DNA of 64,000 nt from positions 32,001-96,000 of the IMG/VR virus record IMGVR_UViG_3300005683_000016; one strand, written 5' to 3'. A program made the position numbers and the translations under genes. The stretch is from a virus. The notes beneath the pieces were generated by a model that was not told the origin of the DNA, did no database searches, and saw only the letters and a program-made list of their open reading frames with translations. Shown here piece after piece: positions 2,377 through 49,472 of this stretch (its first letter is position 1; each line of letters begins with the position of its first letter).

Positions 2377-3474
2377 TTATGTGTAAAACAAGTAATGTTC
2401 TTCAATTGCGTTGTTGGTAAGGATGTCCATGCATACACCCTTGGTGTTTTGCATGAAATTGGTCTGTGACCATTTGGAAGAACCGTACATAGAGAGAACG
2501 TTCTTATACCTGAAAAATTCTCCAAACTGACAAGATGCTTGATGTTGATCCCCCTTGACTACATGAATGTATTTAGAACTGATTTGATGGGCATCTATAT
2601 ATCTTTTAAAATAAAGTTCGGTCTTTAAGTCCAAGGTAGAAGGTAGGGGATTTTTTAAATCTTCTGCATCCTTACCATGACATAAGATAAAACAATGATT
2701 ATCTATCTCAAAATGCTCGATAAATTTATCTCCTATGTAAACCTCTACATCTGGATATTTAAGATTTATTGCTGTCTCTAATGACTTGTTGCATATCCAC
2801 TCAAAATCCCCTCCGTGATTGGATTCTCCTGCTGTGATATAGGAAAGATTACACTTACACTTTTCTTGAATCGTATGAACAAAGTCCAAATGAACCTTCA
2901 TAAAAACAGAATAAACCTCACGATTGGTCATGTTTTGAGGAAGGGTATGACCTCCTCTTGTAGTTTTTTTATCAAATCCGTCCACGGTGTCTAAAAGATC
3001 TATAAGAACTATAGCATCAAATTGACGATTGTTATGAAGATCAATGATATGCTTTGCCAAAACAGTCATCCTTCTCTCAAACTCTTCAGCATTGTACTCG
3101 TTATCAAAAAGAGAGTTTTCTTTGGTCTGTGCTCCTATATGCTTGTCAGACATATAAACAAGTAGTGCAGAAGAAACATCTTCATAAACAGGTACGGTTT
3201 CTTGAACAGGAGAATAGGTTTTTAAAAAAGATTCGAACTCTTCCTTGTAGTTAACTCCGTCTCCCTGTTTGACCATAAAAGTAGATCTTCCTTTCTCTTT
3301 GATCCATTGAGCCTTGACATCCCAACCTTCTTTGATTTGTTCAAGTGCTTTTTCTTTGGCTTCTCTTACGAGTTCTTCTTCTACTCCCAAAGATTTGGCT
3401 ATAGAAGGAACTCCTTTTTCCAAGTAGGAACGATGTGCAATAAAATGTTGAACAAGTGTTTCTAAAGTGTACAT
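2377..3474 (-). CDS. Calcineurin-like metallophosphoesterase
   Basis: Motifs SDKHIG, DTVDG, SNHGG, LCHG and GDQH appear in canonical order. Confidence 0.75.
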   Translation of the reverse strand: MYTLETLVQHFIAHRSYLEKGVPSIAKSLGVEEELVREAKEKALEQIKEGWDVKAQWIKEKGRSTFMVKQGDGVNYKEEFESFLKTYSPVQETVPVYEDVSSALLVYMSDKHIGAQTKENSLFDNEYNAEEFERRMTVLAKHIIDLHNNRQFDAIVLIDLLDTVDGFDKKTTRGGHTLPQNMTNREVYSVFMKVHLDFVHTIQEKCKCNLSYITAGESNHGGDFEWICNKSLETAINLKYPDVEVYIGDKFIEHFEIDNHCFILCHGKDAEDLKNPLPSTLDLKTELYFKRYIDAHQISSKYIHVVKGDQHQASCQFGEFFRYKNVLSMYGSSKWSQTNFMQNTKGVCMDILTNNAIEEHYLFYT

Positions 3475-40729: not shown

Positions 40730-41941
40730 TTACAAAACGTGTTTAACCGTTTTAAACTTAAGACCTTTGTAATGTTTTTTACCTTCGTAAAGAACCTTTT
40801 CGATTGCTTTTCTTTTGAACTCTGGATGTTTAGATATAAAATCATTGATGGAAGGATATTCAGTTTCGGTATCTCCATTTATTACAATTAGTTTTACTTT
40901 AGGCGCATTTGATGTATTTACCCTAAACTTAACTGACTCTAATTTATCTTCATAAGCAAAAGGATATTGAAGAGTGGGAAGTCCTTTACATAAAATAGTC
41001 CGCAAAGAACTTTCGTTTAAATCGTGCTCTATAAGTAAATGCTTAACCGAAGCATATCTTTTTAAAATATTTTTATCTTGATCTATGTGAAGAACGTTGG
41101 TGGTTTTTTTTCTTATTGTATATAGTTCATTAGGATCATATTCTTTTTCTGGAACAAAGATTAATCCTTTAGTAGATCGCTGTCCTTCTTTACCATATAG
41201 AATTCTTTCTAAAGCATTTACAGATACTTGGGGATAAGTGTCTCTAATCTCTTTAGGAGAAGTAAAGGTTTTAATTATTTCTGAAGAATCAGGTTTGATC
41301 TGGAAAATGTTTCCTAATGAAGTAAAAAGTTGAACTTCAAATTCTTCTTTAGTGACTATTCTATAAGGGTTGAGAAAAAGATATACGTCTTTCACTAAAC
41401 CTGTTTCTTTAGATGTTAAGATTATTTTGAGTTTATTGTTACTCTTTCTATCTAAGAAAATAGAATGAGTGTCTTTGAATTTTAAAGTACGTTCTATAAT
41501 ATTGGTTTTAATAGAATCTTCTATGCCATCGAGTGTTTTTAACTTTGAATAATGTTCAAAGTTTTTCTCAGACATTCTCTTCTGCTTACGTTCTCTTTCT
41601 TGTATATGCCATTCTGCATTAAAAGTACCCTGGATAGCCGATTGAAAATTATACCCCCCACCCACTTTTAAGGACTCATAATAATCCATCCAGTAATCTT
41701 CTCTTTCGTTTAAGAGAGATTTATTATTAGGGTCAATAAGTTCTAATATCCTAAACACAAATGCTTGTTCTCCATACTTATTCCAAGAAGATTGTAAATA
41801 AGTATTACCGTGTATTCCTTTTCTTAGAGAAGATCTATGTTGTGACCACCTCGAAGTAATATTTACACTTTGACCAATGTAACGTTTGTTGTTTTCTAAA
41901 TTAAGAATTTCGTAGATACCTGATTTTGCTTTGTGTGTCAT
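40730..41941 (-). CDS. GIY-YIG homing endonuclease
   Basis: Likely start MTHKAKSGIYEI...RYIGQS...RW.QH...LQ.SWNKYG. Confidence 0.88.
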   Translation of the reverse strand: MTHKAKSGIYEILNLENNKRYIGQSVNITSRWSQHRSSLRKGIHGNTYLQSSWNKYGEQAFVFRILELIDPNNKSLLNEREDYWMDYYESLKVGGGYNFQSAIQGTFNAEWHIQERERKQKRMSEKNFEHYSKLKTLDGIEDSIKTNIIERTLKFKDTHSIFLDRKSNNKLKIILTSKETGLVKDVYLFLNPYRIVTKEEFEVQLFTSLGNIFQIKPDSSEIIKTFTSPKEIRDTYPQVSVNALERILYGKEGQRSTKGLIFVPEKEYDPNELYTIRKKTTNVLHIDQDKNILKRYASVKHLLIEHDLNESSLRTILCKGLPTLQYPFAYEDKLESVKFRVNTSNAPKVKLIVINGDTETEYPSINDFISKHPEFKRKAIEKVLYEGKKHYKGLKFKTVKHVL

Positions 41942-42132
41942 GTTATATGTTTTTGATTGCGGGGGTAAAGGTACAAAAAAATAAGAAGGGTGTATGGATT
42001 TTAACATTTTGTTATGCTTGTAAGATAGCATAAGTTTAGCCTCATCCCCCTCACCCATCCTCAATTTGATCTCCTACGCCCCCTATGGGTTATTTGGAGA
42101 TCATATTTTTTCACATGAAAATTTCCAGCAAC

Positions 42133-42535: not shown

Positions 42536-42560
42536 ATTTACCTATATTATATATAGGTGT

Positions 42561-42613
42561 AACTGTCCAGAGATATGTATCTCTGCTGATGAGTCCTAAA
42601 GGACGAAACAGTT
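42561..42613 (+). ncRNA. Type III hammerhead ribozyme
   Basis: AACTGT-C | CAGAGAT-ATGT-ATCTCTG | CTGATGA | GTCC-TAAA-GGAC | GAA-ACAGTT: complete core with a GUC cleavage triplet (cut after 42567). Confidence 0.93.
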
Positions 42614-42741
42614 TTATTTACTATTGGACATCATTAAGGTGCTCCGATAGTATTTAGACCAGAAGGATGGTTTATTAATAATCATTTAATGGTCTTAGTT
42701 ACTTAATTAAGTAAATAGTACAATTAATATTGGTATCAAGC

Positions 42742-43155
42742 CTATTTGTTGTAGTATTGTAATATCTTTTGAATATGAGATATAAACTCATCTATTGTGT
42801 GAGTATATTTCATCATGTTACAGGTATTACAAGAAGGTTGCACATTTTCAAGAGTATATCCTTTTTTAGAATCCACTCGATCAAGACAGTTTGCTTTATC
42901 TCCACAATAAACACAAGGAGTATTTAGCAATGTATCTATTTGATCAACTGTTAAGGAGAACTCAATTCCTTTTCTATTTGCTCGTTTAATATAACCTTCT
43001 GCTTTTCTTTCAGCAGGTGTAAGGTCTTTTAAAGGTTTATTACGAGACGAAATAGATTTAGGTTTTTTCTTTTTCTTGATTTCATGTTGTTGTAACTGCT
43101 GTTTTAATTCAGCAAGTTCTAAAGCAAGTTCGTATCCAGTTTTAATCTGTATCAT
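42742..43155 (-). CDS. HNH endonuclease
   Basis: CVYCG...LDRVDS.KGY...NV.PSCNTCN.MK; likely start MIQIK right after TACCTTTG. Confidence 0.85.
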   Translation of the reverse strand: MIQIKTGYELALELAELKQQLQQHEIKKKKKPKSISSRNKPLKDLTPAERKAEGYIKRANRKGIEFSLTVDQIDTLLNTPCVYCGDKANCLDRVDSKKGYTLENVQPSCNTCNMMKYTHTIDEFISHIQKILQYYNK

Positions 43156-43160
43156 AAATA

Positions 43161-43168
43161 CAAAGGTA
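43161..43168 (-). promoter_or_regulatory. Bacteroidota -7 element (TACCTTTG)
   Basis: TAnnTTTG 5 nt upstream of the HNH start. Confidence 0.6.
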
Positions 43169-43735
43169 ATGTTTAAACTGGAATTATCCAAATATAATTT
43201 GATCTCCACGCTGGAGGTTGTGTCATATTGAACCCATAAAAACATGGGTTGACCAAATTATATATTTTGAACTGTTCATTAACTCATCATACCATGACAC
43301 TCATTTTGAATCCGTCAGGTTCCCTGTCCACTGCTGGTGGATATGATTGGGACAAAAAGTAATGAGTAAAACCTTTCTAACAGTCAAGGGTGATTTGTGA
43401 GAGACTGTTATTTTAGTTTTCATTTGGTTAATATTATCTATTTGTTTGGTTAACTGTTTGTTAATTTAAACAAGTGATTTAACCAAGTGGTTAACTGTAA
43501 GTCATTGATTGTCAGGGGTAAATAAGAACACAAACCCCAACAAAATAGCAACAAATCCTCTCAAATATTCAAGAGAGGACAACTATAGAAGTAATAAGCA
43601 AATATTCGGTGCCCAATCGGTGCATCAAGAGATGGTACTCTCCAGTAAAACTCTACGCTGTTCTCAGACTCACCACCTGAAGCAATGCAGATATGGAAGA
43701 ATTAACAATTTTTTCATTTGTAAAATCAAAAAATT

Positions 43736-44173: not shown

Positions 44174-44587
44174 ATGCTTTACCTATTCAACACTACAATC
44201 ATGCCTAATGAAGGCGTGTTTGTAAATCGCAAAGTATCCAAAGAACAAGCCTGGGAGATTATTGCAAACGCACCAGCGTTTACATCTGCGTTGGGCCATC
44301 AAGGCTCAGCAGATGTATTTAATGCTGTGTTTCCAACATTTGAAGTATCTGTAAATCGCATCCAAGCACAAATGCAACCCAAAGATGAGGCAGTATGTCT
44401 CAAAGTGTTGGGTCGTCTTCCAGAAGGACAAATCCTTTCTCTTGAACAATTGCAAGAGATTGGTTTCGAATTTTTCCATGTCCAAATGGTCATGGGAATT
44501 ACAGAAAACCCAATCGCATTTACTTGCGAGATGGGAGGGTCAAAAAACGAAAAAACATTCACCGCGTTTGGTGAGTGTAAATTTTAA
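44174..44587 (+). CDS. acrIII-1: DUF1874 / AcrIII-1 family viral ring nuclease
   Basis: YLFN N-terminus, FTSALGH (catalytic His), VNRI and GRLPEGQIL: the signature motifs of the STIV B116/YddF family. Confidence 0.88.
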   Translation: MLYLFNTTIMPNEGVFVNRKVSKEQAWEIIANAPAFTSALGHQGSADVFNAVFPTFEVSVNRIQAQMQPKDEAVCLKVLGRLPEGQILSLEQLQEIGFEFFHVQMVMGITENPIAFTCEMGGSKNEKTFTAFGECKF

Positions 44588-44838: not shown

Positions 44839-44966
44839 ACAAATCTACCACGACTGTTAAATGCGCCAGAGGGCTAACAGGTGAAAAGGTAATGCGTAAT
44901 TCAAAGATTTATATCTTTGACGCGGTAATTTGTTTATTTTAATAAATAAAAAAAAAACAAAAAATT

Positions 44967-45599
44967 ATGAAAAATAAAAAAATCCTGTCTATTGATGCCG
45001 AAACCGATGGACTTTGGGGCAATCCGTTTGTAGTTGCCGCTATCGTATATGAGTGGCAACCAGAAAAATTCATCCCAGGTATGGATCGTGGTGTAGATGG
45101 GTACAGACCTGAACACATCCTTCAAGGATATTGGAAAGAAACCAACAAAATTCTGTTAAAACTACCTGATACAGTGGTTTCTAACCAATGGGTAATCGAG
45201 AACGTATTACCTACATTGAGCAATATCCGCCAACACTCTGGCGGTGCTGGTAGTGAATATGTGAACCATACTCACGAATCTTATGAAGACATGCTGCGTG
45301 ATTTTGCAGCATTTTATCTTGCTCACAAACAAAATGCAGATTGCATCTGCCACATGGGCTACATTGTAGAGGCCCATTTGTTTCGGGAAATGCACCACCT
45401 TGGTCACATAGGAGAATGGGATGCACCATACCCGTTGCTTGATGTGTCAGGCAATCTCCAGCAAGTTGGAGAAGATCCTACAAGTGTAGATAATTATGCT
45501 AAAAAACATCGGTTACCAATCACGGATTATGGTTCAACCCATAATCCCCTGTACGACTGCGAAGTTGCCGCCAAAGTGTATATGCACTTAACACGGTAA
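44967..45599 (+). CDS. DEDDh 3'-5' exonuclease
   Basis: SIDAETDGL (ExoI) ... HNPLYDC (ExoIII). Confidence 0.8.
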   Translation: MKNKKILSIDAETDGLWGNPFVVAAIVYEWQPEKFIPGMDRGVDGYRPEHILQGYWKETNKILLKLPDTVVSNQWVIENVLPTLSNIRQHSGGAGSEYVNHTHESYEDMLRDFAAFYLAHKQNADCICHMGYIVEAHLFREMHHLGHIGEWDAPYPLLDVSGNLQQVGEDPTSVDNYAKKHRLPITDYGSTHNPLYDCEVAAKVYMHLTR

Positions 45600-45605
45600 A
45601 CAATC

Positions 45606-45773
45606 AAAATCAAAAGTGAAGTGAAATATATCCATAATGTAATAGACGGTAAGCAGTCCGTTGAGCATATTTGGTTAATCGTGAATGTACTATGTACAAT
45701 GCGAGTATTAAGACCTTTAACGGGTTGCAAGGAGATAATATAATTATCAAATTGTAGGACGGCTTTTGATTTT
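45606..45773 (+). ncRNA. Unidentified multibranched structured RNA
   Basis: Closing stem AAAATCAAAAGT/GCTTTTGATTTT encloses TCCATAAT/ATTGTAGGA and four hairpins. Confidence 0.5.
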
Positions 45774-45897
45774 TTTTAATAAGATTACGGTGAGAATCCG
45801 TCTCTCAGCAAAGTAGTAATACTTGAACTAATAGAGAGTGTAATAAGATGTTCAGTAGCGAAGAAATTAATTTTTCTTAGCGAGAATGGAGAAATCC

Positions 45898-46041
45898 TCT
45901 GAAGTTATTACAGATAACCATGTGGGGCTTATGTCTTGAAATTCTTAAAAAGTGGCGCACTTTTTATTAATAAGTTATAATTCTGTATTAGTACAGCGTA
46001 ACTTAGATTATCAAGCATTAGTGCAGACTTAAAAATCATGG
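45898..46041 (+). ncRNA. Hatchet ribozyme with expanded P4
   Basis: P1 TCTG/CAGA, then CCATG-TGGGGCTTATG-T-CTTGA...TCAAG-CATTAGTGCAGAC-TTAAAAAT-CATGG. This matches the hatchet core as I recall it (CAUGUGGGGCUUAU...AUUAGUGCAGAC...CAUG), with compensatory changes. Confidence 0.85.
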
Positions 46042-46163
46042 AGTGGTACGACCTCAACTCGTATAATCTTTGTTGCAGATATTGATGAAAACATGAAAAG
46101 ATGTTCTGAGAGTCTTTTAAAAAGGTATCAAAAAGCAAAAGAAATTTTATTAAAAATATAAAA

Positions 46164-46594
46164 CATTCACTCCGTAAAGTCTCAGTCTTTAACAGGACTC
46201 ATCACAATTCCTTTAACGTAACATAAGTTGGTGGAACAACAGGCTTAGGTCTGTCTCACAAGTATGGTGGAAGTTTGGTTGGTAAAGACAGGAGATAATG
46301 TAATCCGAAAGGATTGGCAGCAGATGGACATTGTGTTCTTAGAACATAAATAGGTCAATACAAGATGAACAGATTAAATGCTGTTATGCTTGGACGTTTC
46401 CTTATCTGCCTTTTCAAGGTAACACTTTCAAACCAGTAATGGTGAGATAATGAAGAGTATACATGTGGCAAAAGTGTTCCAGTAAGAGCATACCCACCTG
46501 ACAGGGTAATTCCAGTTTCCAAATTGTATAAGGAAACAAACGGGTTAGGATATAATTGTGCAGACGCCCTAATAGTTAGGCTAAGGGTGTAACA
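46164..46594 (+). ncRNA. Unidentified large structured RNA, copy A
   Basis: Shares conserved blocks and covarying stems with 47241-47677. Confidence 0.75.
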
Positions 46595-46599
46595 ACTCC

Positions 46600-47230
46600 C
46601 AATCATTGGGTTAAATGGTAGTTATCAGTTACTTTAACTGATTTAGTTTACCTGTTTGTATAAATTTAACAGGAGTTCTTGTACATACAAGTGTTGTTAC
46701 TTTTTCCAGCAGTCAGAAAAAAGCGTGTAATCTACGAGATAAGATTAACCTACTGTACTTAGGTTTGAGGGTAGTTCCATGTACAACATTGAACCGAAAG
46801 GTATCATGTAAGCCCTTAAGTGGGATAAATTGAGTTAAATTGTGTTAGGTTGAAAATATACCTGTAAGAAATAATACATTTTTCGCATTTGTGAGATTTG
46901 TTAAGGTTCTTCCACAATAATATCCTACACTCAACGATGGCAGCCGGGTTGGAACCCACAGTAGATAAATAACTATACTCTTTTAGGGAGTGAAGTCAGT
47001 GTAGTTTTACTGAAAAAGTTAGTATTTATTAGACTGTTTAATAGGCGTTTTGTATATTGTAAAGTTGAATTTGTATCATAGAGAATCTGTGGGTGGATTT
47101 GCCTAATGTTAGGTGAGAGTAAGTTCGATCCTTACCGTTGATATAAATTTAACAGATATACAATCCTATACTATATAAGTCTGATCAACTTATGTAGTAA
47201 TTGTGCGACCCACATTATTGTGGGTGACAT
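46600..47230 (+). ncRNA. Unidentified ~630-nt ornate RNA (ROOL/GOLLD size class)
   Basis: No ORF; many hairpins and long-range stems; ends in the same 3' module as copies A and B. Confidence 0.6.
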
Positions 47231-47240
47231 TTTTTAAAAA

Positions 47241-47677
47241 CATCCACTCTGTAAAGTCTTGTAATTCGCGGAAGGTTTAACCAAATATTCTCTCTTTGGG
47301 GATAAAAAAGGTGAGAATCCTTTTTCTGTGTATAGACAGGAGATGATGTAAACCAATAATATGGTTTGGCAGCAGATGGACATTGTTATTTCTTAAATGA
47401 ACTAATAAATAGGTTACTGTTCAACTTATATAAGTTGAAAGAGATTTCCTTATCTGCCTCTTCACGTTAATAGCGTTCAAGATACACTATGACCGTTGTG
47501 AAATTCAACAGGAACTACTGATTCTATACCAATCAGAGTAGTGTACATCCAGTAATGGTGAGATAATGAAGAGTATACTAAGGGTAGTCCGTAATTCAGA
47601 AATGAATTAGAGTGGGAAAATAGACTTATAAAAATCCTACCTTAGTAATTGTGCGGCATCCCAAGTGGATGCAACAT
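47241..47677 (+). ncRNA. Unidentified large structured RNA, copy B
   Basis: Conserved blocks and covarying stems shared with copy A. Confidence 0.75.
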
Positions 47678-47689
47678 TTATTAACAAAA

Positions 47690-47724
47690 TTTTAACTTTT
47701 AACTTTTAACTTTTAACTTTTAAA
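47690..47724. repeat. Tandem heptamer (TTTTAAC)x4 plus TTTTAAA
   Basis: Read directly; lies immediately upstream of the ATG at 47737. Confidence 0.9.
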
Positions 47725-47736
47725 ATTGTAACGGAC

Positions 47737-48114
47737 ATGCAATTTACATTAGATCACAAAGTAGGAACAAACTATGTAACTGTCACTTTAAGTGGAAAAG
47801 TATCTCCACTTATATGGTGTGAGTTTTTCACAAAACTCCAATATCTTGGAGGAAAACAAGCAGTAGAAGGACAGTCGGATATTTGGCTGTTACCTACTTT
47901 TGTTACATCACAAGTCATTGAAGAAATCATCCATAACACATGTTTCGTGTGTGGTGGATTGATGAAAGATTCTACTGCATTTTTGAATGACTGTGTATCA
48001 TTCGATGATTTTGGTAATGATGCTGGACAACGAGGTACAACACAATCACGTGTTGGAGAAGCAAAACAAGTCAAAGTTCGCAAGTGCTCTTCTTGCGGAC
48101 ACTCACACACTTAA
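47737..48114 (+). CDS. Hypothetical protein with Zn ribbon
   Basis: CFVCGG ... KCSSCGHS. Confidence 0.7.
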   Translation: MQFTLDHKVGTNYVTVTLSGKVSPLIWCEFFTKLQYLGGKQAVEGQSDIWLLPTFVTSQVIEEIIHNTCFVCGGLMKDSTAFLNDCVSFDDFGNDAGQRGTTQSRVGEAKQVKVRKCSSCGHSHT

Positions 48115-48482: not shown

Positions 48483-48866
48483 ATGAATCAACCAATCATT
48501 TTCAACAAAAATAACCCAACAGAAAAATACATTATTACCGAAAAATGGGAGTTTAACCCCAACGGTATAACCGTCTTTGATATGGAAGTTGGAGGAATCA
48601 CAGATAACGGATTTTACCATTTTTCAGAAATCGAAAATTGGAAAAATTTAGTTAAGCAGGATTTAAAACCTAAAGTCGTAGAAGCAATTCAATCACAAAA
48701 CCTTGAAAAGGTATTATCGTTGCTTCATTTTATGTCAGATAACGGTGTATTATATCAAGGAAGATATAACGCTCTAAAGAAACAGTATACTATGGGCATG
48801 ATTGAATCCTCAGAATATACAAGAGGAATTGCTCAAATAGGTTACGACATTTTGAAAAAATTTTAA
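48483..48866 (+). CDS. Protein with C-terminal EAD11-like helical domain
   Basis: 'EAIQSQNLEKVLSLL...LYQGRYNALKKQYTMGMIESSEYTRGIAQIGYDIL' follows the EAD11 pattern (L..R...L......G.I.........I...L). Confidence 0.6.
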   Translation: MNQPIIFNKNNPTEKYIITEKWEFNPNGITVFDMEVGGITDNGFYHFSEIENWKNLVKQDLKPKVVEAIQSQNLEKVLSLLHFMSDNGVLYQGRYNALKKQYTMGMIESSEYTRGIAQIGYDILKKF

Positions 48867-49386: not shown

Positions 49387-49472
49387 GCTCCTGTGGCGAA
49401 ATTGGCAGCACGCTGCGGTCTTAAACACCGTTGGAGAAATCCGTAAGGGTTCAAGTCCCTTCAGGAGCACCA
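49387..49472 (+). tRNA. tRNA-Leu (anticodon TAA)
   Basis: GCTCCTG/CAGGAGC acceptor, GCGGT-CTTAAAC-ACCGT anticodon arm, long variable arm, TTCAAGT T-loop, encoded ACCA. Confidence 0.93.

Follow-up and report, generated by a model that had tools for sequence, protein, structure and literature searches.

Large ornate RNAs of unassigned function are very few in bacteria and their phages, the known examples being OLE, GOLLD, ROOL, raiA and HEARO, and two of these have recently been shown to form RNA-only nanocages. A tRNA-like module is found in another bacterial RNA, the Y RNA-like YrlA, in which acceptor stem, D arm and T arm are kept and the anticodon arm is replaced. GOLLD and ROOL are encoded by phages near tRNA islands, join a conserved 3' region to a variable 5' region, and carry tRNAs in the linker (PMC12286853). 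The subject here is a pair of elements, copies A and B, in a window of 64,000 nucleotides of phage DNA (bases 32001-96000 of the 142,038-bp IMG/VR record IMGVR_UViG_3300005683_000016, rated complete by CheckV). A and B are most likely paralogous genes of an undescribed, modular family of structured non-coding RNA (ncRNA) in phages of Bacteroidota, with the Saprospiraceae as a host lead, and sequence comparison across the family shows a conserved, covarying, strand-specific predicted fold with modular exchange of its periphery.

Between an open reading frame (ORF) at 44967-45599 and the next at 47737-48114 lie about 2 kb without a credible ORF, the longest plus-strand open frame in 45750-47736 being 63 codons. 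A sequence-only reading of this stretch had proposed two ORF-free copies of a large RNA with shared, ordered blocks, and every block that it listed is indeed present, in the same order, in copy A (46161..46600) and copy B (47238..47680), both on the plus strand and both with the shared helices. When aligned, the copies are identical in 74% of columns, with the identity clustered in blocks; the 21-mer TTGGCAGCAGATGGACATTGT (46314 in A, 47366 in B) and the 30-mer CCAGTAATGGTGAGATAATGAAGAGTATAC (46433 in A, 47549 in B) are identical in both. No third match to either is found in the window at up to three mismatches (0 expected from shuffles), and there is no further copy of A or B across the whole 142-kb genome.

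In A, the leader ACAUU (46163-46167) precedes block b1 (ACUCCGUAAAGUCU, 46169-46182), variable domain 1 (46183-46285) and block b2 (AGACAGGAGAUAAUGUAA, 46286-46303); hairpin Pd follows b2 up to 46315, and then come GGCAGCAGAU (46316-46325), variable domain 3, AUCUGC-CUUUUCA (46404-46416), a short hairpin and linker (46417-46432), block b5 (46433-46460), variable domain 4 (46461-46553), AAUUGUGC (46554-46561) and the 3' hairpin (46562-46591). B runs from its leader ACAUC (47240-47244) through b1 (47246-47259), b2 (47334-47351), GGCAGCAGAU (47368-47377), GCCUCUUCA (47456-47464), an 84-nt linker with a small hairpin and a reduced Y-shaped insert (47465-47548), b5 (47549-47576), variable domain 4 (47577-47646) and AAUUGUGC (47647-47654) to the 3' hairpin GCAUCC-CAAGU-GGAUGC (47656-47672) and the tail AACAUU (47673-47678). 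Two of the blocks held up in part. TAAATAGGT is common to both copies and, family-wide, is found in only the subset of members that have one type of variable domain, while TAATTGTGC, present in A and B, is not confined to them and occurs three times in the region (46553, 47198, 47646) because a third, related RNA, here called M, sits between the two.

Ten further distinct members, on phage contigs here called L106, L136, L142-L146, L148, L149 and L200, bring the family to 12 with A and B. Pattern scans of IMG/VR supplied L106 and L136 (the latter identical in sequence to L124 and L158); among metagenome contigs, all 11 that match a 23-mer of b5 (L142-L152) carry the whole architecture; and L200 was reached by walking outward from homologues of the ORF downstream of B. 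A 15-mer scan of IMG/VR proved too unspecific (1 true match among 116), and neither b2 nor the M block nor the 3' hairpin loop, used as queries against IMG/VR, brought new members. Peptide patterns found no relatives of the downstream ORF in IMG/VR, and blastn found no match among INPHARED phages.

The order of parts is identical in all 12 members. The leader AAYAUU is followed by b1 (ACUCYGUAAAGUCU), variable domain 1 (2 to 103 nt), b2 (AGACAGGAGAURAURUA), hairpin Pd (12 to 98 nt), GGCAGC, variable domain 3 (40 to 108 nt), GCCUYUUCA, a small hairpin (CUC-GAAA-GAG or CGUUAAUAGCG), GUUCAA and then an optional insert, b5 (CCAGYAAUGGUGAGAUAAUGAARAGUA), variable hairpin 4 (14 to 149 nt), and finally AAUUGUGC, a terminal hairpin of one of two types, and AAYAUU. 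Blocks of 14-28 nt are thus near-invariant amid changing surroundings, and the variable domains fall into a few unrelated types that are shuffled among members and even among positions. One module serves as domain 1 in L145 and L149 and lies inside Pd in L148, and L106 is the 5' half of an A-like RNA joined to the 3' half of L146. With its variable-domain types shuffled in this way around a fixed core, the family therefore evolves by modular recombination. CCUAAUAGUUAGGCUAAGG, the loop that is invariant in type-1 terminal hairpins, is found also at L156:3075-3093 on the minus strand, where it directly follows a GIY-YIG-type ORF in a viral contig of 106 kb that is otherwise unrelated, which suggests that this hairpin is a portable module.

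Five core helices, anchored on the invariant blocks, were tabulated: P1 (leader ACAUU with RAURU of b2), P1b (CUCC/GGAG), P1c (GUCU/AGAC), Pc (the six bases after GGCA with the six before CUCUUCA), and Pb (CUCUUCA/UGAAGAG). Over 26 pairs in 11 sequences, 95.5% of cells are canonical, as against 34-47% when the 3' partner is slid by 1-3 columns; eight core pairs have changed on both sides, and the observed values were matched by 0/1000 column shuffles. Pair counting in MAFFT alignments, independent of the block anchoring, gave 96.6% paired for Pc, Pb, the small hairpin and CCA-GYAA-UGG (38-45% slid; six compensatory pairs) and 95.8% for the 5' stem (33-51% slid; three compensatory pairs). Pc, Pb and the hairpins have a covariation score of 0.219 versus 0.108 (0/500 shuffles), and L200 contributes one extra compensatory pair. 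In all, nine or ten pairs show compensatory change.

Individual helices show how these changes run. P1c reads GUAU/AUAC instead of GUCU/AGAC in L149; Pc passes from GCAGAU/AUCUGC to GCAAU/AUUGC in L145, ACAAC/GUUGU in L146, GCCC/GGGC in L136 and GCAGAC/GUCUGC in L200; and in Pb a C-G pair is replaced by U-A in L146 and by U.G in three other members, the sole mismatch falling in the recombinant L106. The compensatory changes first noticed between the two copies, namely ACAUU:AAUGU (A) versus ACAUC:GAUGU (B), AAUCC-GAAA-GGAUU versus AAACCA-loop-UGGUUU, and AAG..CUU versus CG..CG, are real and are upheld in the ten homologues, as are the long-range helices GCAGAU/AUCUGC and CUYUUCA/UGAAGAG. So, too, is the observation that unrelated sequences between the blocks still form hairpins, since Pd, variable hairpin 4 and the 3' hairpin, unrelated in sequence from member to member, fold in all of them. 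GNRA tetraloops (GAAA, GUAA, GCAA) are among the loops, and b5 itself starts with the hairpin CCA-GYAA-UGG.

In the fold that we propose, the leader and b1 would pair with b2 into a 5' stem (P1, P1b, P1c) capped by variable domain 1, with the variable hairpin Pd next in line. The long-range helix Pc (GCAGAU/AUCUGC) would then close variable domain 3 and be directly continuous with Pb (CUCUUCA/UGAAGAG), whose junction would hold the small GNRA hairpin, the GUUCAA linker, the optional tRNA-like module, the CCA-GYAA-UGG hairpin and the invariant GUGAGAUAA; variable hairpin 4, AAUUGUGC and the terminal hairpin would follow. Peripheral domains are exchanged among members by recombination while the core stays constant. 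Searches by eye for tetraloop-receptor contacts and palindromic kissing loops brought nothing firm.

The core helices contain 13 G.U cells, which the opposite strand would read as A.C, and the plus strand is therefore fixed as the RNA sense. GNRA loops are correct on this strand only, and a hatchet ribozyme and the tRNA genes, described below, lie on it too. Such findings bear on whether there is an RNA gene here at all. An AT-rich, gene-free 2-kb stretch with repeated blocks might instead be a set of DNA repeats (an origin, packaging sites or protein-binding sites) or decayed coding sequence, and a 230-codon minus-strand frame does open if TGA is read as Trp. That code-4 frame was rejected, as it overlaps the hatchet, has no counterpart in B, and belongs to a phage whose genes are open under table 11; frame analysis likewise rejected a decayed or hidden coding sequence under table 11 or with recoded stops. 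Against the compensatory changes, the 13 strand-specific G.U pairs, the GNRA loops, the tRNA-like module and a matching spacer from an RNA-targeting system, we regard an explanation without an RNA gene as scarcely credible.

How does this RNA stand among the known families? Searched with cmscan against Rfam 15, at gathering cut-offs and more permissively (E<=10 for the window region, E<=1 for nine related loci), the DNA gave matches only to hatchet, hammerhead and tRNA, apart from rows at chance level; there was none to GOLLD, ROOL, OLE, raiA, RNase P, group I/II introns or riboswitch-like families in the region or the nine loci, and none to any described family for A or B. The tmRNA rows are among those at chance level (15.2 bits at the RNA 3' end in L146 and 13 bits outside the RNA in L143, against a gathering score of 47), and ARAGORN found no tmRNA. 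Over the whole 142-kb genome at E<=10, neither GOLLD (RF02032; gathering score 150 bits) nor the group II model RF01998 (group-II-D1D4-1) gave a match. Nor did ROOL (RF03087; gathering score 99.1 bits), a negative that is weak alone, as the control genomes were also silent; the two cmscan runs on the region and the related loci are independent of it. A group I/II intron was rejected for want of a core-model match and because the flanks are non-coding. RNase P, too, was rejected, with no match at E<=10; the likeness of GUAAAGUC to helix P4 fails on geometry, because the local pairing partner of GUAAAGUCU is AGAC, and the domain between the two is reduced in L142 to a 4-nt UUUU. We found no description of the family in the literature; an IMG/VR catalogue of ~8,500 short candidate structured RNAs (PMC10690425) might hold fragments.

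GOLLD resembles the A/B family in being encoded by phages beside tRNA genes, in running to several hundred nucleotides and in joining one conserved part to a variable rest, and it, too, sometimes has tRNA or tRNA-like units in a linker, a likeness of context that does not define membership (PMC12286853). It differs in length (~800 nt versus 430-650), in its core helices and blocks, and in that the hosts of the A/B family appear, as a lead, to be Bacteroidota. ROOL, too, is large and ornate, occurs near tRNA islands in phages and prophages and has no known protein partner (PMC12286853), but its conserved sequence is unrelated, and it is the A/B periphery that is modular and swapped among members. 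By every available membership test, A/B is a new family unrelated to GOLLD and ROOL, which by context belongs with the few large phage RNAs of unassigned function. With no Rfam match, ten more members in phage contigs and core helices that covary, the central claim of the sequence-only reading, namely that the phage keeps two paralogues of a new class of large structured ncRNA, stands; what it had overlooked are RNA M, the upstream hatchet, the tRNA-like insert of the relatives and a Cas13b spacer.

The insert, ~170 nt long, lies between GUUCAA and b5 in L136, L142 and L143. ARAGORN, which draws it only when long introns are allowed, gives it an 8-bp acceptor stem, a D arm of the AAUUGGUAGA type, a T arm whose loop is of the GGUUCGAAUCC type, and N-CCA, the CCA being that of block b5. 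The three inserts have three different anticodons and "introns" of 57-78 nt (ARAGORN), with no consistent anticodon arm, and the Rfam tRNA model does not match any of them at E<=1; they are therefore tRNA-like structures with an elaborated anticodon arm, not tRNAs. Members with the insert thus share with YrlA an embedded tRNA-like module. Here, by contrast, the phage has no TROVE/Ro60 gene, the module is optional, and the RNA is several times larger; moreover, unlike in YrlA, the encoded N-CCA also serves as the 5' strand of a GNRA hairpin. Of the two copies in this phage, A has nothing at the insert site, and B has a reduced, Y-shaped element. Several tRNA or tRNA-like 3' halves with GGUUCGAAUCC-type T arms, and no A/B-type core, also occur at L204:2440-3300, in a 1.1-kb non-coding stretch 5' of a homologue of the ORF downstream of B.

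The host lead comes from a scan of 185,579 species genomes with a 20-mer, which matched contig CAYZVM010000009.1 (L154) of an uncultured Saprospiraceae metagenome-assembled genome (MAG). The match is a 30-nt spacer (L154:3842-3871) in a 17-repeat array of 36-nt repeats, and the array and the adjoining cas13b form a type VI-B CRISPR-Cas13b locus (L154:3672-4765 and L154:4928-7999), in which cas13b is intact (1132 aa, scoring 573 and 590 bits, the cut-off being 150). The protospacer, at 46432..46461 on the plus strand, covers b5, the most conserved block; the spacer is 29/30 identical to A, and 28/28 positions agree in B (47549-47576) and in most members. The other spacers of the array do not match this phage, and when 401 genomes from the family of the MAG were searched for the pattern at two mismatches, there were, besides this spacer, 17 matches versus ~10 in the reversed control, a chance-level result. 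On the other side of the array lies a PIN-like toxin-antitoxin pair.

In published Cas13b arrays the repeats are 36 nt long and contain a U-rich loop; such arrays run in the same direction as cas13b and yield a CRISPR RNA (crRNA) with the spacer 5' and the repeat 3'. In the MAG locus, cas13b is on the plus strand, the plus-strand repeat has the U-rich loop (GAUUUG), and a plus-strand hairpin with a T-run, terminator-like, follows the array. Given the conventional repeat orientation, the 3'-repeat crRNA design and this hairpin, the crRNA would be complementary to plus-strand RNA, and so the spacer is probably directed against the sense RNA. The protospacer flanks in A (5' A, 3' CAU) agree with the rules reported for BzCas13b; among the mapped Cas13b spacers in the same published study, 9/36 were not against the coding strand. 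We take the spacer as a host lead to the Saprospiraceae and as a hint, not proof, that the RNA is expressed.

The surroundings of A and B are themselves rich in structured RNA. A hatchet self-cleaving ribozyme lies 120 nt 5' of A, at 45894..46041 on the plus strand (67 bits against a gathering score of 51, full model), and a hatchet is found 5' of the RNA cluster also in L149 and L142 and farther upstream in L145 and L143. Copy A has a segment, AUUGUGCAGAC, that resembles part of the hatchet core; the hatchet model, however, matches 45894-46041 only, and the GCAGAC part is unconserved in B, M and most members. Between A and B, at 46595..47240 on the plus strand, sits the third large ncRNA, element M, conserved in at least eight other loci. 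Its 3' module is common to A and B and consists of AUACAAUCCUA, a hairpin, UAUUGUGC, a hairpin that is often GAAA-looped, and then UAACAUUU; in this phage UAAUUGUGC at 47198 is followed by the hairpin CCCACA-UUAU-UGUGGG and by ACAUUUU, and M also has a T-arm-like hairpin, GUAAG-UUCGAUC-CUUAC. M is probably a sister family of the A/B RNA. The content of units varies among related phages, L142 having no A-type unit and L143 having M units on both sides. A Bacteroidota-type -7 promoter motif, TATCTTTG, stands at 44912..44919 on the plus strand ahead of ORF 44967-45599; it is the only one near the region, and none lies directly before A or B, which suggests a single transcript running ORF-hatchet-A-M-B.

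The ORF after B (47737..48114, plus strand) encodes 125 aa with two CxxC pairs, zinc-ribbon-like, and a conserved C-terminal HNTCFVCGGLMKDSTA...VRKCxSCGHSHT; its 163 metagenomic homologues are all unnamed, and they often lie at the downstream edge of non-coding or tRNA-rich stretches. As it, or a homologue, stands directly 3' of the RNA in six loci (here, L142, L106, L146, L200 and L203), and as a U-rich stretch follows the terminal hairpin in several members, one might think of a long cis-acting leader controlling this gene. Copy A, however, precedes M, the RNA of L136 precedes a tRNA-Met, and those of L143, L145 and L148 precede an unrelated ORF; most of the ORF homologues examined (L196-L199, L201, L202, L204) lack an RNA of this family upstream; and a length of 430-650 nt, swapped domains and tandem copies are unlike known leaders. 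A leader function thus appears decidedly improbable. Farther downstream by 1.7 kb is the sole tRNA gene of the phage, tRNA-Leu(UAA), at 49387..49472 on the plus strand, and in most related loci one to four tRNA genes lie 3' of the RNA.

Several smaller features surround the island. About five tandem copies of TTTTAAC occupy 47690-47725, between the end of B and ORF 47737, and one copy is present in L142. A type III hammerhead ribozyme at 42560-42614 (49.7 bits against a gathering score of 48.5), 3.3 kb upstream, has a small ORF on one side and an HNH/endonuclease VII-like ORF on the other. The island is flanked by homing endonuclease genes (GIY-YIG at 40730-42064 and HNH/endonuclease VII-like at 42742-43245, both on the minus strand), with many small ORFs around, and the nearby ORFs 48483-48866 and 44174-44587 match EAD11 (Effector-associated domain 11, E 4e-8) and STIV B116-like (E 2e-20), respectively. 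In the related islands of L143 and L145 there are a twister-P1-like match below threshold (46 bits versus 67.2) and matches to the DUF805b RNA motif (46.9 and 35.5 bits versus 35.6), the coordinates of these matches being L143:1583-1654, L143:3010-3046 and L145:4667-4703. L203 holds, at 3291-3470, a unit with the 3' domain only (a b5-like block, a hairpin, UAUUGUGC and a terminal hairpin) ahead of its zinc-ribbon ORF homologue. A hammerhead-like core (CUGAUGAG...CGAAAC) lies ~1.1 kb 5' of that unit, at 2128-2150, within non-coding DNA of 1.5 kb.

The RAURU of b2 deserves separate consideration, as these 5 nt are complementary both to the 5' leader and to the 5-mer that follows the terminal hairpin. 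The complementarity is perfect for the leader in 7/12 members, for the tail in 9/12, and for at least one of the two in 11/12; in L144 and L149, b2 has AAUAU and the tail becomes AUAUU. This double complementarity could reflect alternative closing helices, head-to-tail association between molecules, or end alignment. It could also mean no more than that the tail is the leader of a next tandem unit; in L200 the terminal hairpin of an M unit abuts the b1 of the next unit directly. The tail may also be part of a U-rich terminator-like tract.

From the same motif one might construe A and B as mobile, intron- or insertion-like units in which RAURU serves as an internal guide for the flanking AAYAUU repeats. 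AAYAUU does stand at both borders, is complementary to b2 and changes with it in L144 and L149; copy number and order of the units differ among related phages (L142, L143); the units abut directly in L200; and GIY-YIG and HNH homing endonuclease genes are close by. Yet no gene is interrupted, the flanks being intergenic or other RNA units; there is no group I/II core and no ORF within the units; no empty site with a precise boundary was found; and the tail AACAUUU(U) may be the terminator-like tract just mentioned or the leader of a lost next unit. We consider mobility of this kind quite improbable.

A ribozyme that processes or ligates itself, or acts in trans on tRNA-like substrates, would draw its active site from the invariant single-stranded GUAAA, GGCA, GUUCAA, GUGAGAUAA and AAUUGUGC. 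Near-invariant blocks of 14-28 nt amid change are typical of catalytic cores, the family lives among self-cleaving ribozymes (hatchet, hammerhead and the twister-like match), perfect pairing of RAURU to leader or tail in 11/12 members would suit end alignment, and in some members a tRNA-like substrate mimic is provided in cis. On the other hand, Rfam has no catalytic RNA to which this one is similar, the likeness of GUAAAGUC to P4 of RNase P fails, and a cleavage or ligation site is not deducible from the sequence. A ribozyme of this sort is in our view unlikely; an invariant core with a variable periphery is compatible with a ribozyme or a scaffold and proves neither. Tentatively entertained here as a possibility is a wholly new class of large functional RNA with a mechanism of its own, for instance one, catalytic or self-assembling, in which RAURU would capture the molecule's own leader or tail and tRNA mimics would be displayed against host tRNA- or RNA-directed immunity such as Cas13; such capture could serve circularisation, head-to-tail multimerisation or a conformational switch.

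The explanation that we favour, with moderate confidence, is a new structured phage RNA that would act as a scaffold or decoy during infection, in the niche of GOLLD and ROOL and unrelated to them. One plus-strand transcript, begun before ORF 44967-45599, would carry A, M and B in tandem; the hatchet would cut this RNA array free from the mRNA of that ORF; A and B would persist as discrete, stable RNAs; and the folded core, with the tRNA mimic where present, would act on the RNA- or tRNA-handling machinery of the host. Several points weigh against this explanation. Transcription of A and B, and the ends and stability of the RNA, are predicted from sequence and surroundings, and the scaffold or decoy function is taken from genomic context. 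Folding-energy z-scores are ordinary (A -0.88, B -2.06; reverse strands +0.52 and -2.19) and do not discriminate between the strands; with the folding energy of single sequences unremarkable, the structural support is therefore comparative, not thermodynamic. Many of just 12 known members have recombinant modules in common, so that there are fewer independent compensatory events than sequences. The tRNA-like insert, missing in A and reduced in B, is therefore not the core function, and the Cas13b spacer is a single case whose orientation is itself inferred.

For the study of such RNAs, the family offers a tractable case, with a small, sharply defined core, a swapped periphery that amounts to a natural mutagenesis series, an optional tRNA-like module, and two paralogues within one genome. 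The Cas13b spacer is a rare hint of host RNA-targeting immunity aimed at a phage ncRNA. An unrelated family in the same niche as GOLLD and ROOL, that of the phage and its tRNA island, would mean that phages have evolved such RNAs repeatedly.

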